Assembly (NCBI GenBank): GCA_036172245.1
Contig: JAYWIR010000148.1
Coordinates: 1 to 63,891 of the forward strand
DNA length: 63,891 nt
Direction: 5' to 3'
Source of the DNA: Raillietiella orientalis
Lineage: Eukaryota
Shown here: positions 2,229-35,497 of the stretch, one piece after another
Position numbering within the stretch: the stretch's first letter is position 1
Layout: every line of letters begins with the position of its first letter
Made by a program: the position numbers and the translations under genes
The notes under the pieces: generated by a model
Databases searched by the model: none
What the model was told of the DNA's origin: nothing
The model's input: only the letters and a program-made list of their open reading frames with translations

Positions 2229-4336
2229 GCACAAGGCGTTCGACTGTGTACACCAGGATCTCCTCCTAGAGCTCCTGAGTCGCATGGGCTTCCGACCCTC
2301 CTTGATTCCCTACCTGCGCTCTTGCTGGCGGAACGCGATAATTTCGATTTCTTTCAGCAGTCAAAAGGTGTATAACGTGCCGGTGCGGCGAGGCATACGG
2401 CAAGGCGATAGTCTAAGTTCCCTGCTCTTTAGCACCTACTTTCAGTTGGAGCTGAGAGCGTACAGAGTGATTTTGTCCCCCATGACGAGCTCATGTCCCG
2501 GCACGCCCGCCGTAAGTGTTTATGGTTACGTTTTGCTGCTCTTGTTACCTATGTGCACCCCGGCGAAGGAGGTCGGAGATTTCTTCGACCTCCTCAACCG
2601 CGGGACCGGACTGCAGGTGAACAGGGCGAAGTCGTCGGTGGTGCCAGTTGGTGCGGCGTGGGCAGGGCAGCAGGACTGGGTCCGTTTTGGGCCCTCCATG
2701 GGAGGTGCATCGAGTACCTTGGTGTGCCGTTGAAGGACTTCTCCCCTGCGGAAGCGTGGTCGAGCTGCGTGCAAAAAGTCGAGACGGCGATCGGCCCGTT
2801 CCTGGAAGGCAAGTTTCACTTGCCGGAAGGGGCCGCGGTTTGCAACGCCTTTGTGGCCTTCATCCTCCGCCTCTGCCTTTTTGTTTGCCCTGCCCCAGGA
2901 GTTTTTAAAAAGAGGGCGAAGGATCTCTTCCGCATCGCCATTTGGGGCGAGGGGAAGCCCCGAGTCCCTTTGAAGGACCTTTGCGTTCCTCGTCCGGCCG
3001 GCAGACTTAGCCTCTTTACGCTGGAACGCCTGGAGAAACAGCTGCCATGGCATATTCTCGCCAACGCTGCGAAAATGTGGAGCACCTTGTGGTGGATTCC
3101 GGCTCGCCATCTACCCAGTCTTGTGTCCTGGTGCGAGGGACTTGCGTCTTTTCTTCTGTGCCCTGGTGGGAAAATCAGAAGATGCGGCCTCTAGCACGGG
3201 CGCATGGCATCGTTGGCCATAGAGAACAGCTGGATGGTTTGCTGCCCCGATAACTCTTCCGCCTGGCTGAAGGAGAACATCGGAACGTGGGAAGTGGTGA
3301 ATGAGAGAAGCCACGTAACGTGGAATCGTCTCCGATGCAGCCCCTACGCCTCCTGTACTCTGAGAAATCTCCTAGAGAATCCAGCTAGGAGCACGTGGGC
3401 GGAGACAACCTGCCTGGTTACGGCGCTGCCCTTCCTAAGAAGGGCGCTTCATAGCAGTCGGACGCTAAGGTAACAAGTCTCCTGCTGCATCGAAGGACGC
3501 GAGAAGTTGATCAGGGGCTGGACAACAGGAGAACTGGCCGACGCCACGACCCCGAGCGTCCAGCCGCGAGGACTAAGAAGATGGGGCGAGCTGCTGGCCA
3601 TCCCTATTGATGTGATGAAGTGGCCTCCGCTTCTTCAGGAATCCAGGATCCTGCCCCTTAAGTGGAAAGAGTCGGCGTTGCTGTTGTTGCATTGGGGTTT
3701 ACCCTGCAACGCACGCCGCTCTCACTGGACAATAGAAGTTGTGGATCCTGCGTGTGTTAGGTGCGGAGAGCGGGAATCGCTCTCTCACCTTATTGTGGAC
3801 TGTGCTTCCCTTCGTCCCCTTTGCGAACGGTTGGGACGATCCTCGATCTCCCTACGGGCAGTTCCCCTAGAGACGTTCTTCAACCCCTCTTCGTGAAGGA
3901 CGCCCTGCAGCTAGCCGCAGCCCTTGCAGCCTTGTGCGGCGTCCGAGGCATCGTGGCGGTATGGAGCGACACCAACACGGAAAAGTTGGTCAACACGCGA
4001 TTGATGTCATCCAATATGCCCAACGCTTCTTGCAGAGAGCTGCTGGATGGCCCCGACTGAGGAACATACGGATGGACCTCGAGGGCTTTCTTCAACGAAT
4101 GGGCCCTCCTCTGGGAGAACAGAGATTCCTTCCCTGCTCTCCAACCTCTTTTGTTTGTTTGGGTTTTCATTTTCACTTTTGTTTTTTTCTCATCCCCTTT
4201 CGTTGCCGGAAAATGCCACGCCGGGCTCCGTCCCGGCGTCGCGGTAGGTCCCGTGCATAAGGCCGTGAGCGGGGACTGGTACCGCAATTGTAGAGCTTTT
4301 TATTGATAAACGCACCGGGTGTTCCCGGGTGGCAAC
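2229..4336 (+). mobile_element. Family C element, 3' part (RT from HKAFD, CCHC finger, 3'UTR)
   Basis: HKAFDCV, RGIRQGDSLS, YLGVPL, CVRCGERESLSHLIVDC, T-rich 3'UTR, ATAAA plus hairpin ending GGTGGCAAC. Confidence 0.9.
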
Positions 4337-4414
4337 TTCAAATCCCCGTGACAAGAGGTGCAAGGGGAACTCCTCGCAAAACTCGAGGACCGAGGCCTTA
4401 AAAAGGTCCCAATC
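4337..4414 (-). mobile_element. 78-bp ORF2 fragment of the host element that continues at 21138
   Basis: Reverse complement reads DWDLFKASVLEFCEEFPLHLLSRGFE, contiguous with GVTLQSLY at 21138-21162. Confidence 0.85.
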
Positions 4415-4437: not shown

Positions 4438-4444
4438 GGACGTG
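4438..4444 (+). promoter_or_regulatory. Conserved 5'UTR motif RGACGTG (DPE-like candidate internal promoter element); representative copy
   Basis: Present exactly or with small changes near all 12 element 5' ends. Confidence 0.5.
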
Positions 4445-4514
4445 TCTTTTCGTTGCTCCTGAGTCTCATTTCCGTTAGTGCTTGTGCGTGGAGTGGGTGG
4501 AGGATTAGGCACCA

Positions 4515-6167: not shown

Positions 6168-6172
6168 CCATA

Positions 6173-9100
6173 ATGCCGGGAATCGCCTCTCGCCGTCGTC
6201 TTCTGATCGCCTGTTGGAACGTGAACGGGCTAAGCGACGACGGCAAGAAACGTGACGTGGCCGCCACCCTGGCATCCTTCGACCTGGTGCTGCTGCAGGA
6301 GATCCACGTGATCTCCGCAGATCAAGCCCGGGAGATCGAACGGATCTCGGGTGGGCGGCTGTTGTGGCGTTGCGGCACCGCGAAATCAAGCGGTGTCGCC
6401 TTCCTGCTTCGGCCAGCCATCGAGACCGCAATAAAGGACGTTCGGTTCGATGACGCAGGTCGCTTCGGTCAGCTGACTCTCAGCTGGTCCGACTCTATCG
6501 ACCTGGTCGTCACCAACCTATACGCTCCTAGCGGAAACAACGCGTTGAGGGCGAAGGCAAGAAGGGAATTCTACCTTGCCCTGAGACGCGATTGGCTGAC
6601 CGATGCAGGAGTTCGCAAAGCGCACCTGATCGCAGGTGATTTCAACCTGCGCCTGCTTTCAGGTGCGCCGGATACACTGAACGACCGCGTCAACGAGTTG
6701 TGCGCAGAAATGAACCCGCGCAACTTGTTGGCCGGGTACACGGCCATGGAAAGCAGCATCGATCACGTGTACCTTGATCAGCACCTATGCTCTCGGGTGG
6801 GCAGGCGCGGCAAGGTACCATCCGAGCTGTCGGACCATGGTCGGATCATGTTCGAAGTGCGTCCGCGCGACAAGGGCCCCCCCTCGTCAGCGTGGCGTCT
6901 GCCAGGGGACTGGTTGAAGTTTCCCGACGCGGCGGAGCACCTCCGCGCGTTTATTCGGAGCTTCAGGATGCAGACACTTCAGGACTGGGACCGCTTCAAG
7001 CGGTCGGTCCAGGAGTTCTGCGACCAGTTCCCCCTGCATCGCCTACCTGCGGGATTTGGGGAGGGGCCGCGTAACGAAAGGTGCTATCTTCAGGCCCGAC
7101 GTTACGCGAGAACCCCCGACATGCGCAGGTTAGCAGAGTATCGAGCGGGAGCCAAGAGGCAAGCCTGGCAATCCCGGTCGGCTAGCTTGCTGGACGACCA
7201 GGGCCGGGAGCACTCGGCTCCTGCTCAGGAGCGCGGCATTGTGAAGAAATTTTACTCCTCCCTGTATGCCAGGGCGCCTCCGGAGCGAGACATCTCACGA
7301 CTTCTGCTTCCGGAAGGTGCTCCAGCGATCGGGGAGGAGGAGAAAAGAAGCCTCGACGAGCCTTTCACGATGGACGAGATCCTCTCGGCCATCGGAAAGC
7401 TCAAGAGGCGGAAGGCTCCAGGGGAGGACGGCCTGCCCGCGGAGTTTTACCAAACTTTCGCGGCTGAGCTTACTCCCCTGGTACATCAGCTCACCTTGCT
7501 GATCCGTGAAACAGGTGACGTTCCCACCTCGTTTCGTTCAGCAAAGGTGCGGCTCCTCCCGAAGGGAGGAGACCTAAGGAGCATGAACAACTGACGTCCC
7601 ATCACAATAGTGAATTCGGACGCCAAGTTGATAGCCAAGATGTAAGCAGAGCGTCAGGGACGTGTTGCCAGCATCTTCATCAGCCCGGAACAGACTTATC
7701 CTGTTCCCGGGCGGAGCATGGAGGCGAACCTGTTCCACGCTTCCACATGGTTAGAGCTCTAACAAGGAATGGGATTATTGAGCAGCCGGAATTCCGGTGC
7801 GTCTGTTGGCGGGAGACGGAACGGTCGGGTAAGGAAGGGAGCCCTTGCGGTCGCTGTCGACTTGCGTAAAGCATTCGACAGCGTCGACCAGAATCTCCTG
7901 CTGGAGCTTCTGGAACGCTTGGGCTTCCCGGCCTCTTTGTTGGCCTACCTGCGCTCCAGCTGGCGCGACGCGCTCATTAATGTTCTTTTCAGCGGACAAA
8001 CCGTGCACGGAGTAGCGGTGCGACGCGGCATACGGCAGGGAGACAGTCTGAGTCCCTTCCTATTCAGTACCTACTTCGAGTTGGTACTGAGAGCGTACAG
8101 GGAGACTCTGGCGCACCTGTCGAGCGATTGTCCCGGTACGCCTGCGGTTTGGGCATACGCGGACGATCTTCTGCTGCTGCTGCCTATGTACACCCCGTCT
8201 TCGGCGGTCGAGGAGTTCTTCGACCTGCTGCATCGGGGAACCGGACTTATGGTGGACAGGGCGAAGTCATCCGTAAGGCCAGTAGGAGCGGCGTGGGCTG
8301 GGCAGCAGGACTGGGTCCGTTTGGGGATCCCCACGGTGAGGTACTTCAAGTACCTTGGTGTGCCGTTGGGGGACTATTCCCCTGTAAAAGCGTGGTCCGG
8401 CTGCCTTCAGAAGGCTTATGCGGCGATCGGTCCGTTTCAGGACGGCAGGTTCTTCCTGCATGAACGGGCCGCGGCGTGGAACGCGTTTGTGGCCCACCTC
8501 CTTCGCCCCTTGCTTTTTGTTTGCCCCCCCTGAGCAGAGTCAAAGAAGGGGACGAAGGACCTCCTGAGGATCGCCCTTTGGGGCAGAGGGAGGCCCCGAG
8601 TCCGTCTTTCCGACTTGTGCGCTCCTTGTCTGGATTGTGGTCTGGGCCTTTTGACGTTGGAACGGCTGGAGTTACAGCTCCAGTTCCGAGTTGTTCCCTT
8701 TATGGCAGAAAATTGCGGCACCCCTGGGTGCCTCCTTGCACGTCTCCTCGTCGAGCGGGCCACCGGCAATGCGAAACTCTCGTCCTACATTGCACTCCGA
8801 AGCTTCATCTGCCACTGCGGACTTCAACTTCGGAGGGCGGCCAAGCTCGTGAAGAACAACTCGGCGCGGATCCTCGTACGCCCCGCGAACGATCCTGCCT
8901 GGTTGCAGGAAACCGTACGCATGTGGGCGATGATTCAGGAGCAGAGCCCGCAACACGAGTGAATAGCTCTGTTCGGGCCGCATGCCCACCGCACGCTCCG
9001 AGAAATCGTCGAGAATCCCCGAAGGAGAGCGTGGGCACAAAGAACCTCCCTTGCTGCGGTACTGCCTACCCTACGGGAACATCTGAGCAGCGACGTCGCG

Positions 9101-9754: not shown

Positions 9755-9822
9755 TTCCTTCCCGCTCCCTCCCTGATTTTTGTTTATTTCTTGTTTTCTT
9801 TTTGTTTCGTTCCTTCTCCCCT

Positions 9823-9966
9823 CTGCTGCAGAGGTCGACCGCGCGGGTCTGCGCACCGGTAGCCCGGCAAGCTATATTTTTCCAGGACGTGGATGGACTA
9901 CTGGTCCAGTCACAGATTGTATAGGTTTATTCGTGAGAATTAACGTCCCGGCGCACCCGAGTTTCA
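9823..9966 (+). other. Structured 3'UTR and terminal stem-loop; representative copy
   Basis: Stems are preserved with compensatory changes among families. Confidence 0.7.
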
Positions 9967-12610
9967 AGCGAGATTACAGAGCGTCGAGCGGACGTGTCTT
10001 TTCGTTGCTCCTGAGTTTCCTTTCCGTTGGTGCTTGTGCGTGATGTGGGTGGAGGATTAGGCAGCAATGCCTGATACCACCACCGGTAAGGATCCGGGAT
10101 CGATGACCTCATTGCCCCCGGAGGAGATGGAGTTGGGTGCTCCCGCATCAGTGGAGGCTCCCGCCAGCACGGATGCGCCCTCGGCCCTACCCAGGACTCG
10201 GAACGCCGTGGCTGCGGCACCTACGCCAGCGGCTATGGCGGAAATGCGCGCTTACTTGAAGAAGGGGTATAACCCACCCCTTCTATATGAGGTAAGCGGT
10301 TTACATTCTCCCGGGAACGCGCGCGCCTTTTCGCAGGCGATGCGCGTTCTCGGTGTACAAAAAGAGGAGCTTCTGGCTATGTCCGTCTGAAGCGGGGGTC
10401 AATTTGTGGAAGTTATCTGCAAGGAGGCAACTCTTGCGCAGAGACTTCTGCGAACCCCCATAATTATGGGCAGCCGGAGGCTTCTCCTAATTACTGAAGA
10501 CCGGTCGGTGATCATTCACCTGACCGGTATCACGTTCCGGATCACGAACGAGGCCGTCCGGAACGAATTCGAAAAATTTGCAACTGTCCACGCCCTGTGG
10601 GGTAAGCCTCCTTCTTTTGTTGATTACGACGGGGTGCCTGGCGGCCTGGGTGCTGCGCGAGTGACGGTTCGCGAGGGATGTGTTTCCCCACAAACTCACC
10701 GTCAACGGTGAATCTGTTGACGTGTGGTACGTGGGGAAACCCAAGTTTTGCGTCTGCTGCAGCATCTTTGGTAACCTCAAAATGAGGTTTCCGTGCGTGC
10801 AGTGCCAGCAATGCAAACAAGCGGGACACACCCGTCTGGTGTGCCCCCAAAACACAGTCCGCGTCGTGTCCGCGAAAAACGCGAGAAAGCGCGCGGATAA
10901 AAACAGAAAGAAGCTGGAAGCTCGTGCTGCTTTCAAGGAGGACACCTCCGTCACCAAGACGAAGGCCAGCTTCGAGACCCCGGCGAAAAACGCCGAAAAG
11001 GTCGAGGGCGAGGGTCAAGAGCCAGGGTGGCAGAAGGTCGACCCCAAGAAAAACTCCCATAAGGAGGGAAAGAACGTGGCGAAACGGAGCGAAACCGCTC
11101 TGTGCCGCGAAAAAATTAAAAGCTGCTGCGTCGTTGTAGAGCGGATTCGCGTCATCGACGAATGCGGCGCTAAACAACTCGCTGCTGCCCCTGCTCAACC
11201 CTGCGTTTACAAAGTCAACAAGGAGGGGAGCGAGGCGGCGGCGTCCGTCATCGAACCCACGCTCGATCACGTCGCCTTCGAGCGCGCCCCGAAGGAGCTG
11301 GCTGCCTCGTTGCAGCCGGTTGTCCCCAAGGATAGCAAGAAGGCCGCAAGGCGTCCGGCTCCCCCTCAGGAGTCGGCCACTTCGGACCCCGAGGTGAAGG
11401 CCGGAAACACAGCATCCACCTCCGCGGCAGCCCGCAAAAAGGCAGGACGAAAGTCCACAATGCCCCGCAAGATCGTCTCCCCCGACGAAGGGGAAGAGAT
11501 GGCTTCCGGTCGCGAGGGTGCCATGAGCGTGGGAAACTCCCGGCACCCGTCGCCCGAGAGAATTCCACGCTCGGACACGGAGGGGATGGTGAGGATGGAA
11601 GCCGAACAGCTACCCCAGGCGCCTGAAGAGGCCTTCGTCCTCGTTCCGATGGTCCTCGTACCGATGGACCTTTCCTACACATGCCCCGCGGGAGGTGCCG
11701 CGACGCCACTTTCCCAGCCATAATGCCGGGGATCGTTTCTCGCCGTCCTCTTCTGATCGCCTGTTGAAACGTGAACGGGCTAAGCGACGACGGCAAGAAG
11801 CGTGACGCGACCGCCACCCTGGCATCCTTCGACCTGGTGCTGCTGCAGGAGATCCACGTTATCTCCGCAGATCAAGCCCGGGAGATCGAACGGGTCTCGG
11901 GAGGGCGGCTGTTGTGGCGTTGCGGCACCGAGAAATTAAGCGGTGTCGCCTTCCTGCTTCGGCAAGCCATCGAGACCGCAATAAAGGACGTTCAGTTGGA
12001 TGACGCAGGTCGCGTCGGTCAGCTGACTCTCAGCTGGTCCGACTCTATCGACCTGTTCGCCACCAACCTATACGCTCCTAGCGGAAACGCCGCGTTGAGG
12101 GCGAAGGCAAGAAGAAAGTTCTCCCTTGCCCTGAGATGCGATTGGCTGACCGATGCAGGAGTTCGCAAAGCGCACCTGATCGCTGGTGATTTCAACTTCT
12201 TCCTGCTTTCAGGTGCGTCGGATACAGTGAACGACCGCTTCAACGAGTTGTGCGCAGAAATGCACACGCGCAAATTGTTGGCCGGGGACAAGGCCATGGA
12301 AAGCAGCATCGATCACGTGTACCTCGAGCAGCACCTATGCTCTCGGGTGGGCAGGCGCGGCAAGGTGCCATCCGAGCTGTCGGACCATGGTCGGATCATG
12401 TTCGAAGTTCGTTTACGCGACAAGGGCGCCCCCTCGTCAGCGTGGCGTCTGACAGGGGACTGGCTGAAGTTTCCCGACGCGGCGGAGCACCTCCACGCGT
12501 TTATTTGGAGCTTCAGGATGCAGACACTTCAGGACTGTGACCGCTTCAAGCGGTCGGTCCAGGAGTTGTGCGACCAGTTCCCCCTGCATCGCCTACCTGC
12601 GGGATTTTGG

Positions 12611-15600
12611 GTTGTCACCCGGGTATGCTCGGGGCGTTCATTGGAAAAACTCTGCATAAACGTGGTACAAGTCCTTAGTAACGGCGACACAACACCGGAC
12701 CTGCCGTGATGCCGGGACGCAGCCCGGCGTGACGCTCCTCGGCAGTGGAGGGGGATAGGGATCAAAAGAAAAAGAAAAATAAAGATATGAAAAGAAAAAA
12801 AAAAGAGTTTGGAGGGTGGAAAAGGGATCACAATCCACTGGGAAGAGGGCCCATCTTTCGTAGGATTTCCTCCAGGTCCATCTTCATGCTTCCCAGATGG
12901 GGCCATGTCGCAGCTCTCCGCATGAAGCAGACCGCATACGGGATGACATCCCTCGCGTTGGCATCCACTGCTTCGTCGCGAATGTTGCTCCAGGTCGCCA
13001 CGATGCCCCGGATGCAGCAGAGGGCTGCGAGGGCTGCGGCGGGCTGCAAGGCGTCTCGCACGAAGAGGGGCCGAAGAACGTCTCTGGGCGCGCTGCACAT
13101 TGTGAGCCCGAGGGTCGTCCCGAACCGTTCCCACAGGGGTCGGAGGGCAGCACAGACAACAAGTAGGTTGGGGAGCGATTCCCGCTCCCCGCACCTGGAA
13201 CACTCAGGCTTTATACTTCCCCGCGTCCAGTGGAAGCGGCGCGTGTTGCAGGGTAGACCCCAGTGCAACAGTAGCAGCGCCGACTCTTGCCACTTCAGGG
13301 GGAGAAGCCTGGATCCGATTAATATTGGGGGCCACTTCAGGTCATCCGTCGGGATGCCGAGCAGCTTGCCCCATCTACGAAGTCCACAAGGGAGGGCACT
13401 CGGGGTTGTGGCATCGGCCAGTTCCCCCATGGTCCAACCGCTCATCTTCTTTTCCTTGCCTGATATTCGGCAGGAGACTTCCCACTTTGGCTTGCGGCCG
13501 CTGGTTAAAGCCCTTCGTAGGAAAGGCAGGATCGAAGCTAGAGGGGTAGTCTCCGCCCACGTCCTCATGGCGGGACACTCCAGAGAAGTCCGCATTGTGC
13601 GGCAGGCGTTGGGTCCGAATCGCAGGCGGTTCCATTCCGGGAAAGTCTGGAGGTTCAATTTGGCCCATGTCGCAACGGATTTCTCCAGCCAGGCGGAGGA
13701 GTTTGCGGGGCTCCATACCGTCCAGCCGTTGTCTCTCAGCAGGGCTTCCATGCTCCCAAGGAGAAGGCCGCATATTCTGACCTTCCTGCCAGAACACAGA
13801 AGGTACGACGCGATTTCTTGCGTCCTGGACACAAGGCTGGCGAGGAGTCGTGCCGGAACGCACCAAGGGGTGCTCCATGACTTTGCTGCGATGGCGAGGG
13901 TGCGCTATCGCGGCTGTAAGTCCAGGAGCTCCAGCGTCAGGAGGCCGAGACCGCCGTCCCGACGAGGAGCGCATAAGTCATCTAGAGGCACAGGTGGCCT
14001 CCCGCTGCCCCAGAGGGCGATGCGGAGTAGGTCCTTGGTCCTCTTTGTAATGTTACGGGGGACGAAGCAAACAAAAAGCAGGGGGCGGAGGATGGGAGCC
14101 GCGAACGCGTTCCGCACCGCGGCCCGTTCCGGCAGAAGGAACTTGCCTTCCAGGAACGGGACGATTCCAACTCTACCTTTTGGAGACGACCTGACCAGGC
14201 TTCTGCGAGGCAGAAGTCCCCCAACGGGACACCCAGGTACTTCAGGTACCTGTCCGTGGGGATCCCTAAGCAAATCCAGTCAGGCCGTCCGACCCACGTC
14301 GCACCCACCGGTACGACCGACGACTTCGCCTTGTTTACCCGAAGTCCAGTCCCACGAATTAGCAGGTCGAAGAAATCCTCGACTGCGGCTGCCGAAGCGG
14401 ACATGGGCAACATTAGCAGAAGGTCGTCGGCGTATGCTGCTACGGCGGGCGTGCCGGGTCACGAGCTGGGCAGGGCAGCCAATGTCACCCTGTACGCTCT
14501 CAGCATCAACTCAAAGTAGGTGCTAAAAAGCAGGGGACTGATGCTATCGCCCTGCCGTATGCCCCGCCGCACCGGCGCGCCGTACACCTGTTGGCTGGAA
14601 AAGCAGGTGTTAAGGATGGCGTTGCGCTAGCAGGAGCGCAGGAAGGAGAGAAGGGAGGGTGGGAAGCCCATGCGACCCAGGAGCTCCAGCAGTAGCTCCT
14701 GGTCAACGCAGTCGAACGCCTTATGGAGATCGACCGCGATCGCTAGGGCCCCCTTCCCAGCCCGGGTGTCCATTCCTAGCCCAGCTGGTGACCCCAAAGT
14801 GGGGTAGCCAATCTTTCCGCCAGTTTCATTCAGGCAGCGCTGCACATGGAACCATGTACTTGCGCAGAAGAGGTTGGCATCCATACTTCGCCCGGGAACA
14901 GCGTATGTCTGCTCCGGGCTAATTATTGAGTCTGCCACCTGTCCTAGACGCGAAGCCCACAGTCCAGCGACCAGCTAGGCGTCCGTATTCACAATTGTAA
15001 TCGGACGCCAGTTGCCTAGGGATCTCAGATCTCCTCCCTTCGGGAGGAGCCTCACACGGGCTGACCGAAACCAGGCGGGAACTTCGCCTTCGTCTCGGAT
15101 CAGCCCGGTCAACTGGAGCACCAGGGGGGCCAGCTCTGTCGCGAAGCATTAAAAAAATTCTGCAGGCAGGCCATCCTCCCCTACCGCCTGACGCCTCTTA
15201 ATTCTTTTAATACCGGCGAGAATTTCACCGGTAGAAAAAGGCTCGTCGAGGCTGATCCTCTCCTCCTCCCCTATTGCCTGGCCTCCGTCCGGAAGCAGGA
15301 GCCGCGAGGCGTCCTGCTCTGGGGGTGCCCTAGTGTCGAGGGAGGAATAATACTGCCGCACGATGTGCCTGATCGCGGGTGGGGCCGATCGCTCCCGGCC
15401 CTGGTCGTCCAGCAAGCTGGCCGACCCGGATTGCCAGGCTTGGCGCTCGGCCCCGGCCCGATATTCGGCCAGGCGACGGACACTGGGTGTCCTCTCGTAC
15501 CGGCGGGCCTGTGAATAGACCCTATGGTTCCGAGATCCCTCCCCAAATCCGGGGGGCAGGCGGTGCAGGGAAAACTCCTCGCAGAACTCGCGGACCGAGG

Positions 15601-18270
15601 CCTTGAAGAGGTCCCAATCTTTGAGACTGCGGAGGGTGACGCCTCTCAGGAATTCGCGAAGGTGTTCCTTCGCACCTGAGAGCCGCGTCCAGTCCCCAGG
15701 CAACCGCCACGCTTTGGCCGGGGTCCTTTATCGCGCGGGTATACCTCGGCGATTAACCTGGAATGTTCCGACAGCGTCGACGCAACTTTTCCCCGTTTGC
15801 CGACCCGGAAGCACAGGTCGACATCCAGGAAGAAGTGGTCGATGCTGCGGTCCATTCCCTCCGCGTCCGCCAACAAGTTGGGCGTGCGCATGGCAGCGCA
15901 CAACTCGTTGGCCGTGCGTTCTTGTGCTTCGGGCTCACCTGACAGCAGACGGAGACTAAAGTCCCCAGCTATCAGGTGTGCCTTCCGCACGTTCGTATCG
16001 GCCAGCCAGTCGCGCTTCAGGGTTTCCAGCAACCTGGTACTGTCGCTGTATCCCCCTTTCCCGCTTGGGGCGTACACGTTTGTGACGATCAATTCAATCG
16101 AGTCGGACCAGCTGAGAATTAGCTGACCGACCCGACCGTCGTCATCGGAGCGTACACCTTTCACGGTAGCGTCGATGGCCGGCTTCACGAAATACGCGAA
16201 CCCACAGGTGTTGCGGGCGCCGCATCGCCAATACAGTCGACGCCCCGCGAACGTGTTGATCTCCTGGACGTCTGCCGAGGTGATCACGTGGATCTCCTGC
16301 AGCAGGGCAAGGTCGAACTCACGCAGGGTGTCGGCCGTATCTCGTCTGTTGCCGTCGTCGCGCAGCCCGTTGACGTTCCAGCTGGCCACGCGGATTCGAC
16401 GGCGGCAGGCGAGCCCAGGTGTTATTCCTGGGAAATCGGCTCTGCGGCGTCCGCCACCTGTTGGGGCGGGACGCGAGTTGGGGCAGGAGGGACAGGTGCC
16501 TCGAGCACCTGGTCCCTCTGCTCCATCGGTGACGGGGCGTCGGGCGGGTCACCCTGCGGTGGGGTCGCGCCTACCTGTTGGCCCTCCTCCATACGGGTGG
16601 GCTGTACAGGGTCCGCGCCGGCAAGGAGGACTTCGCCCCCCTGCTCACCCTCCTCCATGGGGGTGGCCTGCTCGACGACTTCCGCGCGTGGGATTTCCCC
16701 CTCCGGGATTCCCACGCTGCCGTCGGCTTCCTGCTTCTTTTCCTCGCTCGTGGAGGGGAGGCGCCTCCTCGACTTTTGGGACTTGCGTCCCGTCTTCCGG
16801 GGGGGTGCCTCCGGAGAGGAGGATGCACTTCCGGCCCCCAGGTCGCACTCACATGCGGGGGCCTTCTTCGGCGGAGCCGGCCTTCGCACGGCCTTGCGTG
16901 AGGGGTTCTCACGCTCGGCCAGCGTGGCCGCGAGCTCCTCCGCCGCCTGCGCGAACGCGGCGTCCTCGCTTTCGGCGCGCGCTTCGCGCGGCTCACCCTC
17001 TGTGCAAACAGAGGGTTCGTCGTCGCGTACCTCGGGCGCGGCGGAAACGGCGAGGGGAGGCTCGTCGCCCTGGTTGGCAGCCTCGGGGACGGCAATCCGT
17101 TTGAGTGCCACCGTGCACTCACGAAGAGTTTTCGAGCGCAAACCGGGTTTATTCGGTTTCGCGCTCTTTTCTCTCTTCGCTCTCGCGGGTTCCACGGGGG
17201 GAACTTTTTTTTCTTTTCTGTCCTTAACCAGCTTCCATCCTTCTTCCTCTCCCGCGTCTTCAGCAAGTTTTCCCTCCGACGCCTAAGTGGGAGGAACAGG
17301 AGATGGCGGCTGGGGCCTGCCAGTTTCGCGATAAGGTCTTTCGACCTTTTTTCCTTTTCTAACCTGTGCCTTTTTGGCAGCAGGTGGCACTGGGGTGGGG
17401 CGTTTGGGGCACACACGACGTAAGTGTCCCTTAACTCCGCACAAGTGGCACTCGATATTCGGGCACCGCTTGCGCAAGTGCCCTACTGCATCGCAGTATC
17501 CACAATAGCGGGGTTTCCCCACGTACCAGAGGTCGACGGATTTCTTTCGACCTCCAGTTTGTGGGGCAAGCCACTTCCCTCATTAACCGTTACACGCGCT
17601 GCGGCCTGGCCTCCGAAATGGCTATTAAATCCTTCGAAAATGGTAGGCTTTGGCCACAACGCGTGTATCTCACCGTACTTACTTAGTGCATTACTCACCG
17701 CAGATCGCGTCATGCAGTTCGTAATGCCGTTTAGATGGACCACTACGGAGCGGTCCATGCTAACCGGCAGGATCTTCCAGCCATCCACATTCAGCGGGGT
17801 GATATTGAGGCGCTGTGCTAAGGCTACGTCTTTGCGGACGACCTCCACGCGTTGCCCCCGCTGAGTACGGAGAGGCCGTCAAGATCCTTTTCGCGTACAG
17901 GAAAATCCTGCAGTGCCCTACTAAAAGCCCGGGCCGTGCGACCATCAAACAGGGGTCCTACCTTATATACCAGAGATGGTTTATATCCGGAGGCCCTGTA
18001 GGCCGCTTGCTGTGCCAGGGTTTCCGCGCTCGGCGCGGAAACCATGACGCTCCACGTCCTCGGCGTTGCCGGGGATGATTCCGGGGCGGACACCCCTGAT
18101 TCTGCAGACTGTGGAGGTGGGCAAGCCTCCCTCACACCTACCTACATCGTGGTGTCCTCAGGTATCGCTGCCATCGGACACCAACGATGTTCCACACGAA
18201 CACACACAAAGAAAAAACCGCTTCCTGTAGACTCGCTCAAGAGCTCAGGAAAAACACGTCCGCTCGCCAA
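12611..18270 (-). mobile_element. Family C element, full length, antisense inside the family B copy
   Basis: ORF1 about 18174 to 16422 (CGYCDAVGHLRKRC, CHLCGVKGHLRRVC); ORF2 16422 to 12828; flanked by gggattttgg (12601-12610) and ggtagttggg (18271-18280). Confidence 0.93.
12828..16422 (-). pseudogene. ORF2 (APE-RT-CCHC) of the family C copy, frameshifted
   Basis: ORF pieces 15646..16389, 15149..15703, 14627..14938, 13982..14413 and 12828..13832 are collinear with family B ORF2. Confidence 0.9.
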
Positions 18271-21137
18271 GGTAGTTGGGGAGGGGCCGCGTAAAGAAGG
18301 TGCTATCTTCAGGCTCGACGTTACGCAAGAACCCCCGACATGCGCAGGTTAGCAGAGTATCGAGCGGGAGCCGAGAGGCAAGCCTGGCAATGCGTGTCGG
18401 CCAGCTTGCTGGATGACCAGGGCCGGGAGCACTCGGTTCCCGCTCAGAAACGCGGGATAGTGAGGAAATTTTACTCCTCCCTGTACGCCAGGGCGCCTCC
18501 GGAGCAGGCTGTCTTACGACTTCTGCTTCCGGAAGGTGCTCGAGCAATCGGGGAGGAGGAGAAAAGGAACCTCTACGAGCCTTTCACGATGGTCGAGATC
18601 ATCTCGGCCACCGGAAAGCTAAAGAGGCGAAAGGCACCACGGGAGGACGGCCTGCCTGCGGAGTTTTATCAAACTTTCGCGGCAGAGCTTACTCCTTTGG
18701 TACATCAGCTCACCTTGCTGATCCGCGAAACAGGTGACGTTCCCACCTCGTTTCGTTCAGCAAAGGTGCGGCTCTTCCCTAAGAGAGGAGACCTAAGGAG
18801 CATGAACAACTGCCGTCCCATCACAATAGTGAATGCGGACGCCAAGTTGCTAGCCAAGCTGTGGGCAGAGCGCCTGGGACGGGTCGCCAACATCTTCATC
18901 AGCTCGGAGCAGACATATGCTGTTCCCGGGCGAGGTATGGAGGCGAACCTGTTCCACGCTTCCACATGGTTAGAGTTCCAACAAGGAAGGAGCATAATAA
19001 GCAGCAGGAATTCCGGTGCGTCCGTCGGTGGAAGACGGGATGGTCGGCAGGGGAAAGGAGCCCTCGCGGTCGCAGTCGATTTGCATAAAGCATTCGATTG
19101 CGTCGATCAGAATCTCCTTTTAAAGCTTCTGGAACGCTTGGGATTCCCGGCCTCATTGCTGGCCTATCTGCGCTCCAGCTGGCGCGACGCGCTTCTCAAG
19201 GTTTTTTAGTGGATCCACCGTGTACGGCGTACCGGTGCGACGCGGCATACGGCAGGGAGACAGCCTCAGCCGCTTGGTCTTCAGCTCCTATTTGTAATGG
19301 GTACTAAGAGCATACAGGAAGACTCTGGCACACCTGCCGTGCGATTGTCCCGGTACGCCTGCGGTTTCGGCGTACGCGGACGATCTCCTGCTGCTGCTGC
19401 CTATTTCCACCCTGGCCTCGGCGGTCGAGGACTTCTTCGACCTGCTGAATCGTGGAACAGGACTGGCGATGAACAGGGCGAAGCCGTCCGTAATGCCAGT
19501 CGGAGCGGCGTGGGGAGGGCAGCAGGACTGGGTCCGTTTGGGGATCCCCACGGTTAGGTACTTCAAGTACCTTGGTGTGCCGTTGGGGGACTACTCCCCT
19601 GCGGAAGCGTGGTCCGGCTGCCTTCAGAAGGCTCAGTCGGCGATCGGCCCATTCCAGGACGGCAGGTTCGGCGGCCTCCCTCCTTCGCCCCTTGCCTTTT
19701 GTTTGCTCCCCCTCAGCGGAGTCAAAGAAGAGGACGAAGGACCACCTGAGGATCGCCCTTTGGAGCAGAGGTAGGCCCCGAGTCCGTCTATCGGACTTGC
19801 GCTACTCTTAGGGTTGGTGGTTTTGGCCTCCTGACGCTGGAGCGGCTGGAGCTTCAGCTCCAGTTCTGAAGTGTTGCCTTGATGGCAAAAAATTGGTGCA
19901 CCGCCTAATAGCTCCCTGCACGTCTCCTCGTCGATCGGGTCACCGGCAATACGAGACTCTCGTCCTACTTTGCACTCCGAAGTCCCTTCTGTCACTAAGG
20001 ACTCCAGCTACAAAGGGTGGCAGGCTCGTGAAGACCAACTCGGAGCAGATCCCCGTACGCCCTGCGAACGGTCCTGCCTGTCTGCAGGGAACCGTACGCA
20101 CGTGGGCGATGACTCCGGAGCAGAGCACGCAACACGAGCGAATAGCTCTGTTCGCGCCGCACGCCCACCGCACGCTCCGAGAAATCATCGAGGAACCCCG
20201 AAGGAGAGAGTGGGCACAAAGAACCTCCCTTGCAGCGGTACTACATACCATGAGGGAACATCTGGACAGTAACGTCGCGGAACAATGGGAGGTTACTTTC
20301 AAGATCGCCAAAAGGGAGAAGATGGGGGACTGAAGAACGGCTCAGCTGACCAACGCTGCGAGCCCGAGGACCACCCCACACAACTCTTGCGCTGAAGCGA
20401 GCTACTGGATGTTCCAAAGAAATATCTGGAGTGGCCCCCGGTGCTCATGGACACGCTCACCCTCTTTATGAAGTTGCAACATTCGGCACTCCTGGTGTTG
20501 CATTGGGGCCTCCTTTGCAACTCTTGCCGACACTACTGGACGCGGGGGAGTGTCAACCCCAATTGTGACAGGTGCGGGGAGAGGTAATACCTCTTCCACC
20601 TGTTAGTGGAATGTGTTGCCCTTTGTCCCTTGGAACGCTTTGCCGCAGCCCTGGGGACTCCCGGAGGCAACTTCAGAGACTCTTTGGGCCCCTTCTTCGT
20701 CCATGATGCCCTGCCTCCAGCGGCCTCGCTTGCAGTCCTGTGCTGCCTTCGCGGGATCGTGGTGGCCTGGAGCAAAGCGAAGGGAGGGTCCAGCAACAGT
20801 GACGCCACCGTGTGCGCCCCCTGCTTCCAGAGGATGGCGACGCTATGGCCCCATCTAAAATCCTACATTCAGCGACAGCTTGCCGGCATCCTCCAGAGGA
20901 TGATGGACCCTTTCAGCAGACTGTGATCCCTTCCCGCTCCCCCCCCAATTTTTGTTTATTTTCTTTGTTTTTCTTTTTTTCGTTTCCCCCCCCTCTGCTG
21001 CCGAGGTCTACCGCACCGGTCTGCACACCGGTAGCCCGGCAAGCTATATCTTTCCACGGCGCTGCTGGACTACTGGTCCAGTCACAGATTGTGTAGGTTT
21101 ATTCGTGAGAATAAACGTCCCTGCGTACCGGGTTTCC

Positions 21138-27176: not shown

Positions 27177-29214
27177 AAACAGCCGATCCACCGCGATCGA
27201 CTCTATCTCCTGAGCGTTCTCAACGGTGATCACATGTATCTTCTGCAGGAGCGCCAGGTCGAAGTGACGCAGAGTGTGAACCGTATTTCGCCTGTTACCG
27301 TCGTCGCTAAGCCCGTTGACATTCCAATAGGCTGCGCGAAACCGACGGCGACTGGCGAGTCCAGGTACTATTTTTAGGAAAGGGGCAGTGCGGCGTTAGC
27401 CTACTGCTGGTGCGAGACACTAGGTGGAGAAGGAAGCTCAGGTGTTGAAGACACCTGATGCGCCTCCTCCATGGGTAACGCCGCGTCGAGTGGATCAACC
27501 GCTGGGGGAGTCGCGCCTACCTTTTTGCCCTTCTCCATAGGGGCGGGCTGTTCAGAGACGGGGACTGCGGGGAGGACTTTACCCGTCTGCTCACCCTCCT
27601 CAATAAGGGTTGCCGGCTCGACGGCTTCCGAGTGTGAGAGTTCCCTTTTCGGGATTCCCACGCTTCTGCTACCTTCCTGCTTCTCCTCCTCGCTGGTGGA
27701 GGGGAGGCGCCTCCTGGGATCTGAGATTTGCGTCCCGACTGGCTATGGCGCGCCTCCACGAAGGAGGATGAACTTCCGGCCTCCAGGTCGCACTCACCTG
27801 CGGGGGCCTTCTTTGCTGGAGCCGGCCTTCGCACGGACTTACGCGATAGGTTCTCACGCTCGGCCAGCGTTGCCGGCAGCTCCTCCGCCGCCTGCGCGAA
27901 CGCGGCGTCTTCGCTGTCGCTTGGAGCGTCCAGCGGCTCACCTTCTGTGTACAGAAAGGGTTTGCCGTAGCGAACCTCGGGCGCGGCGGAAACGGCGAGG
28001 TTGGGCCCGTCGCTCCGGGTGGCAGCTTCAGGAACAGCAATGCGATCGAGTGCCACGGTGCACTCCCGCAGAGTTTTTAAGCGCTGCCAGGTTTTTTCGT
28101 CTTACCGACGTCTTCTTCACCGCTCTCATGGGTTTCGCGTGGAGCATCTTCTTTTTTCTGGCCTTAACCAGCTGCCAGCCGTCCTGGACTCCCCCGTCTT
28201 CGGTAGGTTTTTTTTCTGACGCCTGTGTGGGAGGAAGGGGGCCTGGCGGCTGCTGCCGGCCAGTATCTCTCTTTGGTCTTTCAATCAATTTTCCACCTTT
28301 TTTTCAGCGCTTTCTTGGCAGCTAGCGACACCGGAGTGGAGCATTTAGGGTATATGAGGCGCACTTGTCTCTTATCCGCGCAGAAATGACACACAATGTT
28401 CGGGCACCTCTTACGAAGGTGCCCTACTGCATTGCAGTAGCCACAAAAGCGGGGTTTCCGCACGTACCAAAGGTGTACTACTTCGTCTAGGACTTCTAGT
28501 TTGTGGGGAAGCCCACCATCCTGCTTTACCGTGAAACGCACTGCGGCCGGTCTCCCAAAAAGGCTTTCGAATGCATTGAAAATCGTGGATTTTGCCGACA
28601 ACGCGTGCACATCTTTGCATTTGTTCAATTGTTTACTAACTGCTGACCTGGTCATGCGGCTAGTGATACCTGTGAGATTGACCAACACGGAGCGTTCCCT
28701 CGTCACTGGTAATATCTTGCGGCCGTCGACGTTCAAAGGGTTGGTGATCAAGCTCTGAGCTAAGGTGATGTTGTTGCACACCACCTCGTCTCCCTGACCT
28801 TCGCTAAGAACCGACAGCCCGTCAAGATCTTGTTTTTCTATTCCGGCGTTTTGCAGCGTCGTTGAGAAGGCTCGTGCGGCTTTGCCATCGAATAAAGGGC
28901 TTATCTAATAAACAAGCTAAGGCCACCTTCCAGCATACTTGTATGCCATCTGCTCTGCCATGGTTTCCGCGCTAGGCGCGGCCACCATGGCGCTGCAGCT
29001 CCTAGCCTTGCGCGGCGAGGGCGATTCCGGGACGGACGCCCCTGATTCTGTAGGCTGTGGGGGTGGGCAAGCCTTACCCACACCAACCTCCATCGTGGTG
29101 TCCTCAGGCATCGCTACCATCGGACACCAACGATGTCCACACATCAAACACACACAAATAAAACCTTCCTAGCAATTCTTTCGGGAGCGCAGAAAAAACA
29201 CGTCCGCTGACCGT
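27177..29214 (-). mobile_element. Family C element, 5' part (ORF1 and first APE motifs)
   Basis: MVAMPEDTT start, CGYCNAVGHLRKRC, WNVNG, LLQKIHV; GGACGTG at about 29199-29205. Confidence 0.9.
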
Positions 29215-30001
29215 GTGATTTGGCGAGGGTCCTCGCAAACATAGGACTTATTTACAGGTGAGCCGGTACGAGAGAACCGCTAATGTCCGTCGCTTGGCCG
29301 AATACAGCGCTGGGGCCGAAAGCCAAGCCTGGTAATCCAGGTCGACCAGCCTGCTGGACGCCCAGGGCAGGGAATGGTTGTCCCCGGCGTCGGAACGGCA
29401 TCTCGTGCGGAGTTATTATTCCTCCCTTTACGCGTGAGCGCCCCCAGATCAAAATGCTTATAAGCGCTTGCTTCCGGATGGTGCCCCGGCAATAGGGGAG
29501 GAGGAGATATTTAGACTTGACGAGCCTTTTACCACCGGAGGAATTCTTTCTGGTATCAACAGGCTCAAGAGGCGAAAATCTCCAAGGGAAGACGGCTTAC
29601 TCGCGGAGTTCTTTGAGAGCATCGCACAAGAGCTCGCTCTCCTGCTGCTTTAGTTGACAAGGGTGATCTGAGATCAAAGCGAAGTTGCCTCCTCGTTTTG
29701 GTCGGGCAGAGTGGGGCTCCTCCCGAAAGGAGAAGTCCTCAGAAAATTGAACTTGCGTCCGATCACGATCGTGAATACGGACGACATGTTGATAGCTGCC
29801 ACCCGGTCACGCCGGGGCGTTTATTAAAAATTCTCTTCGATACGTGGTACAAGGCCCCACTACGGCCAACTCAACTGGACCTGCCGGGTCGCCAGTACGC
29901 AGACCGGCGCGACTCTCCTGGGCAGCGGAAGGGGGTGGGGGAAAAAACAAAAAGAAAAATAAAACATAAAAACAAGAAGATTTGGTAGGGTTGGGGAGGG
30001 A

Positions 30002-33000
30002 TCACTGACCACTGGGAGGAGGGCCCATCCTTCTCAGGATGCCCTCGAGGTCCGTCCGTATAATTACCAGGTGGGGACATCTGGTGACAATCCGCAAGTA
30101 GCGGACTGCAAGTACGACGGCATCCCTGTCGTGGCTCCGTCTTCCGACGTTGCTCCAGCACGTCACAATCCTGCGAACGCAGCAAAGTGCAGCCAGGGTA
30201 GCGGCTGGACGCAGGGCATCATGCACGAACAGAAGCCGAAAAACGTCTCTGGGCATGCTGCCCTCCTGGATCCGTAGGGAGGCACGAAGACGTTCCCACA
30301 GGGGTCGGAGGGCAGCACAATCAACAAGGAGATGTGGGAGGGTTTCCCGTTCCCCACAACTGATGCAGGTAGGATCTACTCGACCCCTGGTCCAGTGGTG
30401 GCGGCGTGCGTTGCAGGGTAGACCATAATGCAACAACAGAAGCGCCGACTCCTGCCACTTTAGGGTGAGGATCCTAGAACCAATTAATACCGGGGGCCAC
30501 TTCAGGTCATCCGGCTGGATGCCGATTAGCTCGCCCCATCTCTGCAGTCCTCTCGGCTGGACACTAGGGGTACTGGCGTATGCCAGTTTACCCGTGGACC
30601 AGCCGCTGATCAACTTCTCCTTGCCTGCGATGCGGCAGGAGACTTGCCACCTAGGCTTGCGGCTGCTGGAGAGCGCCCTCCTCAGGAAGGGCATCGCCGT
30701 AGCTAGGGGGTTGTCTCTGTCCACGTGCTTCTTGCGGGAAACTGGAGTATCTTCCGCAGAGTGCAGCGGGAATAGGCGCCGCGTCGCAGGCAGTTCCACA
30801 TCTCTTCATTCTTTTCATTAATCTTCGCCCACGTGCCAGCTGTCTCCGCCAGCCATGCGGAGAAGTTGGCGGGGCTGCATTCCATCCAACCGTTTTCCTT
30901 TGCCAGGGTTGCCATGCGTCCCAGGAGGAGTATGCATCTCTTGATCTTCGAGCCGCGGCACAGAAGATGAGACGCGAGACCCTCCGTTCCGGATACACGG
31001 CTGGCAAGGAGTCGGGCAGGAACGCACCATGGGGTGCTCCATAACTTCGGTGCGATGGCCAGGGTGCGCCACTGCAGCTGGATTTCTACTCTGTCCACCG
31101 TCAAAAGAGCCAGACCGCTATCTCGACGTGGAGCACACAAGTCCTTCAACTGGACTCGGGGCCTCCCTCTTCCCCAAAGGGCAATCCTCAGGAGGTCCTT
31201 CGTCCTTTTCTTCATGTCTCTGGGGACGGGGCAACAAAAAGTAGGGGGCGGAGGATGGGAGCCGCGAAGGAGTTCAACACCGCGGCCCGTTCCGGAAGTA
31301 GTAACGTGTCTTCCAAGAACGGGCCGATCGCCGTTTCTACGTTTTGGAGGCAGCCGGACCACGCATCGGAAGGGGAGTAATCTTCCAACGGCACACCGAG
31401 GTACTTGAAGCACCTCGCCGAGGGGATCCCCAAACGGACCCAGTTCTGCTGCCCAGCCCACGTCGCACCGACTGGCACCACCGACGACTTCGCCTTGTTA
31501 ACCTGCAGTCCGGTTCCGTGGTTGAGAAGGTCAAAGAAATTTTCGACTGCCTTTGCCAAGGTGGACATCGGCAACAATACCAGATCATCGGCGTACGCTG
31601 CTACGGCGGGCGTGCCGGGGCACGAGCTCGGCAAGGGGGCCAACGTCACCCTATACGCTCTCAGTACCAACTCAAGGTAAGTGCTAAAGAGCAGGTAACT
31701 GAGGCTGTCGCCCTGCTGTATGCCCCGCCGTACCGGCACGCCGTACGCCATTTGAACTCTGAAAGAGATATTCATCAGCGCGCTGCGCCAGCAAGAGCGC
31801 AGATAGGTCAGTAGGGAGGGAGGAAAGCCCATGCGTCCCAGGAGCTCCAGCAGGAGATCCTGGTCCACGCAGTCAAAGGCTTGATGCAGATCGACTGCGA
31901 TCGCTGAGGCTGCCTTCCCCACCTGGGAGTCGTGTCCCTGCATGGCTGACGCCCCCAAAGCGGGGCTGCCAATCCTTCCCTCTTCCTTTTCTTCACTACT
32001 CTGCACATGAAACCATGCGCTCGCGAAGAAGAGGTTGACCTCCATACTTCGCCCGGGAACAGCGTAATTCTGCTCCGGGCTAATTATGGAATTGGCCATT
32101 TGCCCCAGACGCGAAGCCCACAGTCCGGCGATCAACTCGGCGTCCGTGTTCACAATTGTGATCGGACGCCAGTTGCTGAGTTTCCTGAGGTCTCCTCCTT
32201 TCGGAAGGAGCCTCACTCTGGCTGACCGAAACGAGGCGGGCACATGGTCTTCATCTCGGATCAGCCTTGTCAACTCAAGCACCAGGGGTGATAACTCTGC
32301 CGCGAAGCATTGAAATAACTCCGCAGGCAGGCCGTCCTCCCCTGGTGCTTTCCGCCTCTTGAGACTTTTGATACCGGCGAGAATTTCGCCGGTGGTAAAA
32401 GGCTCGTCGAGGCTTTCCTTCTCATCCTCCCCTATTGCCGGGGCACCGTTCGGAAGCAAGCGCCGAGAGGCATCTTGGTCCGGGGGCCCCTGGCGTAAAA
32501 AGAGGAATAATAACGCCGCACGAGGTGCCGTATTCTAGCCGGAGCCGAGTGCTCCCGGCCCTGGTCGTCCAGCAAGCTGGCCGATCCGGATTGCCTGGCT
32601 TGGCGCTCGGCCCCGGCTCGGTACTCTGCCAGGCAACGGACATTGGGGGTCCTCTCGTACCGGCGGGCCTGTAAATAGACCCTATGGTTCCGAGCCTTCT
32701 CCCGAAATCCGGCGGGCAGGCGGTGCAGGGTGAACTCCTCGCAGAACTCGCGGACCGAGTCCTTGAAGAGGTCCCAATCTTTGAGACTGCGGAGGGTGAC
32801 GCCTTTGAGGAATTCGCGAAGGTGTTCCTTCGCATCTGAGATGCGCGTCCAGTCCCCAGGCAACCGCCACGCCCTGGACGGAAGTCCTTTGTCGCGCGGG
32901 CATACCTCCAATATCAATCTGGAATGGTCAGACAGTTCCGACGCAACTTTCCCCGTTTGCCGACCCGCGAGCACAGGTCGACGTCCAGGAAGACGTGGTC

Positions 33001-33581
33001 GATGCTGCTGACCATTTCCGGGAGTTACCCTAACAAGTTGCGCGTGCGCATGGCAGAGCACAACTCGTTAGTCGTCCGTTCCTGTGTGCGTGCCTCACCT
33101 GATAGCAGGCGGAGATTGATGTCTCCCGCTATCAGGTGAGCCACGCGAACGTTCGCTTCCACCAGCGAGTCGTGCTTCAGGCTTTCCAGGAACGCCGCGC
33201 GTTCCCGGTACCTCTTATAACCGCTCGGGGCGTATACCTTTGTTACGACGAGGTCGATCGTGTCGGACCATCTGAGAATCAGCTGGCCGACACGACCGGC
33301 TTCGTCGAAGCGGACGCCCTTCACGGCAGCGTCGACCGCCGGCTTCATGAAAAACTTGACGCCGCAGGTGAATCGGGTGCCGCATTGACACACCAGCCGC
33401 CCCCTGCGATCCTTTCGATCTCCTGGGCGTCCTCCCCGGTGATCACGTGGATCTCCTGCAGGAGTGCCAGGTCGAAGTCACGCAGGGTGGCTGCCGTGTC
33501 CCGTCTGTTGCTGTCGTCGCGCAGCCCGTGGACGTTCAAACATGCCACACGCAATCGACGGCGACAGGCGAGCCCAGGTGT
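30002..33581 (-). pseudogene. ORF2 (APE-RT-CCHC) of the family D copy, frameshifted
   Basis: 415-aa RT piece 31212..32459 with KAPGEDG, NWRPIT, QAFD, YADD; CISCGERETLPHLLVDC. Confidence 0.92.
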
Positions 33582-35320: not shown

Positions 35321-35497
35321 GCAGGTGCCCCCTTTTTCAAGGAGGCGGTTGCGCCCTTTTTCAGGGTTGCGGTTGTCCCCTTTTTTCAAGGGGGCGGTTG
35401 CACCCTGTTCCAGCGGGGCTTTTGCCCCCTTTTTCAAGGGGGCCTTTGCCCTCGTTTCCGAGGCGGCGGTTGCCCCTTTTTCAGGGGTGCGGCTGCC
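35321..35497 (-). repeat. About 24-bp coding minisatellite (about 7 imperfect units, GATAPLKK-like) in the ORF1 N-terminus
   Basis: Recurring gcggttgcccctttttcaaggg units. Confidence 0.8.

Follow-up and report, generated by a model that had tools for sequence, protein, structure and literature searches.

Long interspersed nuclear elements (LINEs) with a specific insertion target are known for ribosomal DNA (rDNA), small nuclear RNA and transfer RNA genes, microsatellites, telomeres, and a DNA transposon, with R1 in 28S rDNA, Keno in U2 genes, and Tx1L in a DNA transposon as examples. Conserved coding sites serve as homing targets for homing endonuclease genes and group II introns, and the LINE Zepp has poly(A) tails. 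In the sections of the literature compared here, target-specific retrotransposons that lack long terminal repeats (non-LTR) are assigned mostly to early-branched, Tx1, and R1 groups, the latter two of which use an apurinic/apyrimidinic endonuclease (APE), and 'transposons' are named among the known targets (Kojima and Jurka 2015, PMC4640811). Zepp and ZeppL are described as L1-like LINEs that form nested clusters and 'target existing copies', with arrays of tandem 3' ends and frequent 5' truncation (Craig 2021, PMC8226300), and Zepp clusters as richer in G+C than their surroundings and present once per chromosome (Blanc 2012, PMC3446292). Here, a nested cluster of related non-LTR retrotransposons, which carry an APE endonuclease and a reverse transcriptase (RT), was analyzed in Raillietiella orientalis contig JAYWIR010000148.1, and all results are drawn from one window, the whole analyzed stretch of 63,891 nucleotides. 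Copies of one family, family C, repeatedly interrupt their hosts at a single position (site A) of the second open reading frame (ORF2). Judging from these sequences, family C is probably a target-specific APE-type non-LTR retrotransposon whose target lies in the ORF2 linker between the endonuclease and the RT of related LINEs, including those of its own family.

The most complete case is C1, a full-length family C copy of 5660 bp (12611..18270, minus strand), which lies in an element of family B, B2. The 5' part of this host (9967..12610, plus strand) contains ORF1, the APE, and the linker up to the Gly-Phe-Gly codons and is 93.9% identical to positions 4415-7061 of the sister copy B1 (4415-9965), and its 3' part (18271..21136, plus strand) contains the remaining linker, the RT, the C-terminal region, and the 3' untranslated region (UTR). 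In B1 the site is empty: GGGATTTGGG (7051..7060, plus strand; codons (GC)G GGA TTT GGG) is directly followed by GAGGGGCC, and the protein across it reads LPAGFGEG, the 10-mer consisting of the third base of codon x of the Pro-x-Gly-Phe-Gly motif (PxGFG) and the Gly-Phe-Gly codons. The order in B1 is ...CCTACCTGC GGGATTTGGG GAGGGGCCGC..., and that in B2 is ...CCTACCTGC GGGATTTTGG, the 5660-bp insert, and GGTAGTTGGG GAGGGGCCGC.... The left copy of the target-site duplication, GGGATTTTGG (12601..12610, plus strand), adjoins the 3' end of C1 and is followed by gttgtcaccc, and the right copy, GGTAGTTGGG (18271..18280, plus strand), adjoins the 5' end and is preceded by ...cgctcgccaa. The insert, whose open reading frames are broken, has its 3' end ...GGGTGACAAC at 12611 and its 5' end TTGGCGAGCGGACGTG... 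at 18270; read out, the termini are ...CCCGGGTGACAAC (3') and TTGGCGAGCGGACGTGTTTTTCC (5'). Because the B2 flanks past both 10-mers continue the B1 sequence, with 47 of 48 upstream bases matching outside the 10-mer, the 10-mer is truly duplicated, and since the B1 site is empty and the B2 flanks are colinear with it, C1 represents a clean insertion with duplication. The left and right copies match the empty site of B1 at nine and eight of the ten bases, respectively. The duplication is 10 or 11 bp long, because the insert starts with G on this strand and the left boundary is therefore ambiguous. As a separate observation, the identity between B1 and B2 is 93.9% to the left of C1 and falls to 88.3% and then 83.4% to its right, for which gene conversion halted by the insertion, or different source RNAs, are possible explanations.

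Three further insertions meet site A, each with one junction and in a register consistent with a 10-bp duplication. F2, a family C copy of which the 3' 2.1 kb is present (2229..4336, plus strand) and whose 5' side is interrupted by another element at the KAFD codons, ends in ...GGTGGCAAC at 4336 and is followed by ttcaaatccc, where the site A 10-mer GGGATTTGAA (4337..4346, minus strand) of its host F3, a C-like element (4337-4414 and 21138-23737, minus strand), begins. The 3' part of another family C copy, F7 (35697..38059, plus strand; other piece at 29215-29796), ends in ...GGTGACAAC at 38059 and is followed by gccgaaaccc, at the 10-mer GGGTTTCGGC (38060..38069, minus strand) of host F8, a member of a divergent family that extends from 38060 to ~40785. 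F6, the 5' 2 kb of a family C copy (27177..29214, minus strand), has its 5' end at 29214, followed by gtgatttggc, at the 10-mer GTGATTTGGC (29215..29224, plus strand) of host F7, after which comes GAGGGT. F7 plays both roles at site A, as an insert in F8 (38059) and as a host interrupted by F6, so that the targets of family C include its own members in addition to families B and F8. Uninterrupted sites are present in C1 itself (CGGATTTGGG, 15542..15551, minus strand), in another family C copy, C2 (CGGATTTCGG, 32702..32711, minus strand), and in F10 (GGGATTTGAA, then GACGGG; 45540..45549, plus strand).

Aligned in the host sense, the five junctions of the four insertions share one codon register: the three 3' junctions fall right after the second Gly codon, and both 5' junctions begin with the third base of codon x. 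All four inserts run antisense to their hosts. Such coincidence of position, across five junctions and at least three independent events (see below), is what is expected of a target-specific LINE. A random hit on the same base and in the same orientation of a 5.6-kb host would be expected in about 1 in 11,000 cases, and by our own arithmetic (~5.6 kb, two orientations) the chance of three further hits on one position is near (1/11320)^3. When the 16-mer GGGATTTGGGGAGGGG was searched with at most three mismatches, seven matches were found against 1.00 expected, a number reached by none of 100 shuffles, and five of the seven were the homologous ORF2 position. All the coordinates and letters that the initial annotation had given for the site A junctions are present in the sequence, and the insertion it had described at the PxGFG codons with a 10-bp duplication is borne out by the LPAGFGEG reading of B1, the 10-mer on both sides of C1, and the agreement of the junction registers. 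The likeness among the 10-mers follows from host homology, and the non-trivial features are the identical breakpoint and orientation. The consensus GGGWTTYGGN proposed for the site has descriptive value only and is confounded by codon conservation and post-insertion decay. The 10-mer starts with G in six non-C hosts and with C in C1 and C2.

A mechanism of target-primed reverse transcription (TPRT) probably accounts for these features. The endonuclease would nick the strand of host sense immediately behind ...GGGATTTGGG (or one G beyond it), before GAGGGG, and the freed 3'-hydroxyl (3'-OH), in the case of C1 presumably that of the left duplication copy (12601..12610), would prime first-strand synthesis at the defined, non-polyadenylated 3' end of the RNA (...CCGGGTGRCAAC); the copy would lie antisense to its host because it is the host-sense 3'-OH that primes at the RNA 3' end. 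A cut of the other strand 10 bp upstream would then create the 10-bp duplication, and a full-length complementary DNA would be attached through a precise 5' terminus that lies 7 nt ahead of the conserved GCGGACGTG. Every insertion would destroy the ORF2 of its host and supply a new target, and repeated rounds would produce the nested cluster. We infer the recognizing protein, the order of the nicks, and recognition by protein rather than by RNA; the endonuclease or the ORF2 protein is favored because no complementarity between the element termini and the target was found by eye and the 10-bp offset is kept at two 5' junctions.

The alternative that survives best, although we regard it as improbable, is a homology-guided process in which a read-through RNA tail bearing antisense host sequence anneals to the nicked homologous ORF2 DNA. 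Read-through tails of R1-type elements are described as directing new copies to the same place, and every site A donor would carry the target sequence just 3' of its end. Moreover, the last 20 junction bases of F3 diverge from C1 and C2 more than the preceding 58, and its 10-mer is the one found in F10, not the one of its own family, which resembles a patch copied from the flank of a donor. However, the 5' junctions at 18270/71 and 29214/15, which are independent, are both offset by exactly 10 bp from the 3' register and point to defined staggered cuts, the hosts F8 and B2 are only 66% alike beside the site, which would be poor for annealing, and both C2 and a second family inserted at the KAFD codons are equally antisense and precise at other sites. 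Recognition of site A by the endonuclease or the ORF2 protein of family C is the preferred reading.

The insert subclade is linked to the site. When ten elements were compared in a tree over their 3' 2.1 kb (the tenth row being without its end), family C formed a clade with 100/100 support, within which C1, F2, and F7, all inserted at site A, formed a subclade (94/97); none of the six other 3' ends that were read (0/6) lay at site A. The C clade of the 5' tree consisted of C1 and F6, both at site A, together with F3 and C2. Within the window, site A holds no end of any other family. By our own event count and arithmetic, four of five events of the site A subclade were at site A versus none of ~10 others (hypergeometric p ~0.004).

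A second family shows parallel behavior at another motif of the same reading frame. The 5' ends of F1, F4, F10, and F14, which belong to one 100/100 clade, lie at ~2228, 25095, 42913, and 62463 (junction ranges 2224-2229, 25090-25096, 42912-42917, and 62463-62467), and each adjoins, in antisense, the homologous RT codons of the ...DL.KAFD... motif of its host. The site reads GCATAAAGCATTCGAC in the host sense and is empty in B1 at 7864-7879. On the opposite side of the same 13-16 bases, the 3' end of F12 (47013; range 47011-47013) adjoins host F11, and F12 is probably the 3' half of a KAFD-site element, an assignment made by inference only. The duplication at this site is ~13-16 bp (GCAYAAAGCATTCGAY), and the five junctions occur in five different hosts. 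The inserts F1 and F10 are 91.4% identical and their hosts 70.7%, with the step exactly at the junction, and the filled KAFD hosts (F2, F5, and F9/F15) are scattered among empty ones in the 3' tree. The same comparison (91.4% for inserts versus 70.7% for hosts) ruled out a candidate interpretation in which positions 1-2896 were an inverted duplicate (87%) of the composite at 42239-45121, with the junctions propagated by that duplication. Because the KAFD family behaves in parallel, the reading in which each family has its own sequence-defined target is strengthened.

It is very unlikely that these positions represent a structural or regional hotspot which lacks sequence recognition and accepts whichever family inserts. 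As a hotspot might produce, ORF2 contains several recurrent breakpoints, site A and the KAFD site among them, and an antisense orientation is shared by nearly all nested copies. However, the sites are private to families, all five site A termini being from the C subclade and all four KAFD-site 5' ends from one 100/100 clade (with the F12 3' end as a probable fifth terminus), and the breakpoints are exact to the base. Another apparent recurrent breakpoint, near element position 2040-2060 (27178 and 59072), was rejected, its two instances being ~26 bases apart and hence not one site.

The independence of the insertions was examined by a maximum likelihood host tree built from 1 kb of sequence upstream of the site, for the seven elements in which this stretch is covered. 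In one of the two deepest clades, C2 (empty) was joined to a pair of C1 (empty) and F3 (filled) with 91/95 support; in the other, F8 (filled) was joined to F10 (empty) plus the pair of B1 (empty) and B2 (filled), the latter with 100/100 support. Three changes between filled and empty states are needed on this tree, and approximately unbiased (AU) tests rejected B2, F3, and F8 as one clade (p 2.5e-6) as well as F3 and F8 as one clade (p 2.4e-4). The host flanks beside the junction are family-specific: over 68 host bases, B2 shares 97% with B1 and F3 shares 82% with C1, and F8 reaches no more than 66% with any of the others. F2 and F7 group as sister inserts (100/100; branch lengths of 0.15 and 0.20), and their hosts, F3 and F8, belong to the two deepest host clades. 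As these sister inserts sit in the most deeply split hosts, a 3' transduced flank or a duplicated composite is excluded. A single ancestral insertion whose junction was spread by segmental duplication, ectopic recombination, or gene conversion, for which the highly repetitive nature of the cluster, the hint of conversion in the declining B1/B2 identity (93.9%, 88.3%, then 83.4%), and alignments that continue through junctions at 74-77% identity could be cited, is the least credible explanation of all, given three gains on the host tree, the AU rejection of a filled clade, sister inserts in distant hosts, junction bases that follow the family of each host, and an empty B1 that is sister to the filled B2.

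No fewer than three of the events are independent, and the fourth is probably so. For the fourth event (F6 in F7, at 29214), only the 5' junction is present and the available half of the host has no overlap with the other hosts; it is separated from the others by position and strand, that is, by geometry only and not by a tree. The four independent insertions claimed in the initial annotation are, therefore, upheld for at least three, through the three state changes, the AU tests, and the family-specific flanks, and by geometry only for the fourth. Its statement that the hosts belong to different families agrees with the junction-proximal flanks of B2, F3, and F8, which follow separate families, and the comparison of host and insert phylogenies that it had suggested revealed filled hosts interspersed with empty relatives and sister inserts in distant hosts.

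Several points weigh against target specificity of family C as set out above. The evidence base is a single window, and family C flanks were censused inside it only. Of the four insertions, C1 in B2 is the sole one that shows both junctions, and its two 10-mers match each other at 7/10, which represents more decay than in the 48 upstream bases (one difference). B1 is empty despite having a perfect-match site. All copies have broken open reading frames, so the window provides no active endonuclease. Family C copies are 64-74% alike in the last 150 bp and ~77% alike at best over longer stretches; given this divergence, the site A events are old and an identity step across their junctions is not demonstrable. 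Moreover, C2 and the 5' end of the C-like F3 lie away from site A, and the specificity is strong but not absolute, being relaxed or differing between subfamilies.

With regard to these two exceptions, C2 is a full-length outlying family C copy (29797..35696, minus strand) inserted antisense in F7 at a different ORF2 site. It is flanked on both sides by GTTGATAGC (9 bp), or by 16 bp if ACGMCAW is counted (29781-29797 and 35690-35705). The seven host bases before this duplication (ACGCCAA in relatives) are the complement of the family 5' end TTGGCGT, which suggests that the 5' junction of C2 may have been mediated by microhomology. The 5' end of F3 is joined in sense to the ORF1 region of another element. 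F3 also contains, in antisense, the B1-B2 pair with C1 nested inside it, whose borders (4414/4415 and 21136/21138) show a 0-1 bp duplication ~80 bp upstream of site A. An additional observation is that AGGG coincides with the inferred position of the first nick, or lies a few bases to its 3' side, at site A (GGG^GAGGGG; 7057-7066) and at the C2 site (GATAGC^AGGGCT; 29791-29797 and 35700-35711), and that it lies near the inferred F3 nick (5' flank, 23745-23765). The background chance of AGGG starting within 1, 3, and 7 positions is 0.6%, 1.8%, and 4.0%, respectively. This pattern is a lead only; it was compared post hoc, and the position of the F3 nick derives from an assumed duplication length.

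The general architecture of the elements was established by nhmmer searches with C1 (reverse complement of 12611-18270) and B1 (4415-9965) as queries, which segmented the window into ~25 fragments colinear with one 5.6-kb element plan comprising, in order, ORF1, APE, linker, RT, C-terminal region, and 3' UTR. The repeats are identified as non-LTR retrotransposons because their reading frames carry Exo_endo_phos (APE) and RVT_1 domains: Exo_endo_phos was found in B1 (6077-7594, E 3e-16) and C1 (15646-16548, minus strand, E 5.9e-9), and RVT_1 in B1 (7763-8533, E 5.1e-15), with APE upstream of RT in an L1-like arrangement. C1 is colinear with B1 along 5.5 kb and contains the PxGFG, KAFD, and YxDD motifs in differing frames. 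A weak match to zf-RVT was also obtained (E 0.081; 14 bits against a cut-off of 27.5), and CCHC-like patterns were detected in ORF1 of B1 and C2 by regular expression only. Matching database proteins, most of them unnamed, were L1-like (APE, RT, and zf-RVT), with 23-37% identity overall and at most 24% wherever most of the query was covered. The Chlorella vulgaris Zepp reverse transcriptase O64428 (E 1.6e-5, 24% identity) ranked 13th of 14, below fish-, fungus-, and metagenome-derived proteins. Among metagenome contigs, four loci matched the B1 APE-linker protein, with no more than 28-31% identity across the APE part, too distant to be informative about flanks.

The ends of the elements are well defined. 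A conserved AATAAACG...CCGGGTG-type tail with no A-run was present at the 3' ends examined (n = 9), and a conserved GCGGACGTG-type leader at the 5' ends examined (n = 12). A candidate conserved 3' hairpin was rejected as weak (5 pairs, -2.45 kcal/mol, one pair with a compensatory change), and a search for the 12-mer CCGGGTGRCAAC with two mismatches was uninformative, since the 13 matches compare with an expectation of 12.5. The 3'-terminal 12-mer of family C (CCGGGTGGCAAC or CCGGGTGGCAGC) recurs in antisense within the ORF1 region of three C-like copies, at a homologous position in each (22535-22546, 28015-28026, and 60228-60239, plus strand), a recurrence that may be due to chance. Tandem repeats were observed in the 5' regions of elements, with 24/48-bp units in C2 (35312-35524) and 42-bp units in three copies of the KAFD-site family (2028-2110, 43024-43106, and 62590-62696). 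At three head-to-tail junctions, 0-5 bases separate the 3' end of one element from the complete 5' end of the next (9965/9967, B1 to B2; 40786-40792, F9 to F8; ~50057, an unnamed 3' end to F13), which fits either template jumping between RNAs or insertion at the end of an element. The first 50 kb and the last 5 kb of the window consist almost wholly of related repeats and have a G+C content of 54-62%. A low-GC island (G+C 41-44%) lies at ~50,800-58,500, where a Pfam search of 12 open reading frames yielded no family; an Rfam search yielded no matches. This island may be a unique flank of the cluster, or another repeat.

A broader reading of these findings is more tentative, and we place it somewhat short of an even chance. 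The related families may constitute a guild of LINEs in which each holds, in antisense orientation, a private conserved ORF2 codon motif (Pro-x-Gly-Phe-Gly for family C and KAFD for the second family), and this could serve both as a mechanism of nucleation and growth in place of Zepp-like clusters and as a form of competition among LINEs. If true, this would be the long-sought mechanism by which Zepp-like clusters, which are candidate algal centromeres, nucleate once and grow in place, and it would also imply competition in which each insertion eliminates a rival and leaves a fresh target behind. Already under the narrower reading for family C, a LINE aimed at a conserved codon motif of other LINEs, those of its own family included, would occupy a self-renewing niche in which selection on active elements keeps the target constant, each insertion supplies a further target, and genes are never hit. 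That reading would offer a testable mechanism for the unexplained 'insert into existing copies' behavior of centromere-marking LINE clusters in several green algae, as well as naturally programmable APE endonucleases with differing 10-16 bp specificities in closely related proteins.

In comparison with known systems, the locus resembles Zepp in its nested cluster, in its elevated G+C content (~55-61% here versus ~42% at 50-58 kb), and in the presence of the Chlorella Zepp RT among its distant protein matches. It differs from Zepp in that the 5' ends are full length and precise, the copies lie in antisense orientation within their hosts, and A-runs are absent; neither poly(A) tails nor 5' truncation of the Zepp type was found at the nine 3' ends and twelve 5' ends examined. 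Based on protein sequence, the elements are too distant to be called Zepp. No sequence-defined target of Zepp was found in the portions of PMC8226300, PMC3446292, PMC9940879, PMC11005252, and bioRxiv 10.1101/2025.03.28.645958 that entered the comparison, and the original descriptions (Higashiyama 1997, Yamamoto 2003) lie outside it, so that a prior description there is possible. The likeness to R1 and Tx1, which concerns architecture and target behavior and not RT phylogeny, consists of the combination of APE and RT, one precise multicopy target, a short duplication (10-11 bp at the one complete insertion), and defined ends. On the other hand, the target here is a conserved ORF2 coding motif of sibling and own-family LINEs that is hit in antisense, and this gene contains separate private sites for at least two related families. 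An analogy, and only that, can be drawn with homing elements, whose target is likewise kept constant by selection on host gene function, a niche that is hard to lose by mutation, whereas here the process would be TPRT by a LINE and the host is another selfish element. Thus, target-specific insertion by a LINE is known in kind, and what differs at this locus is the coding motif of sibling LINEs as target, the strict antisense orientation, the division of sites among related families, and the self-feeding nest.

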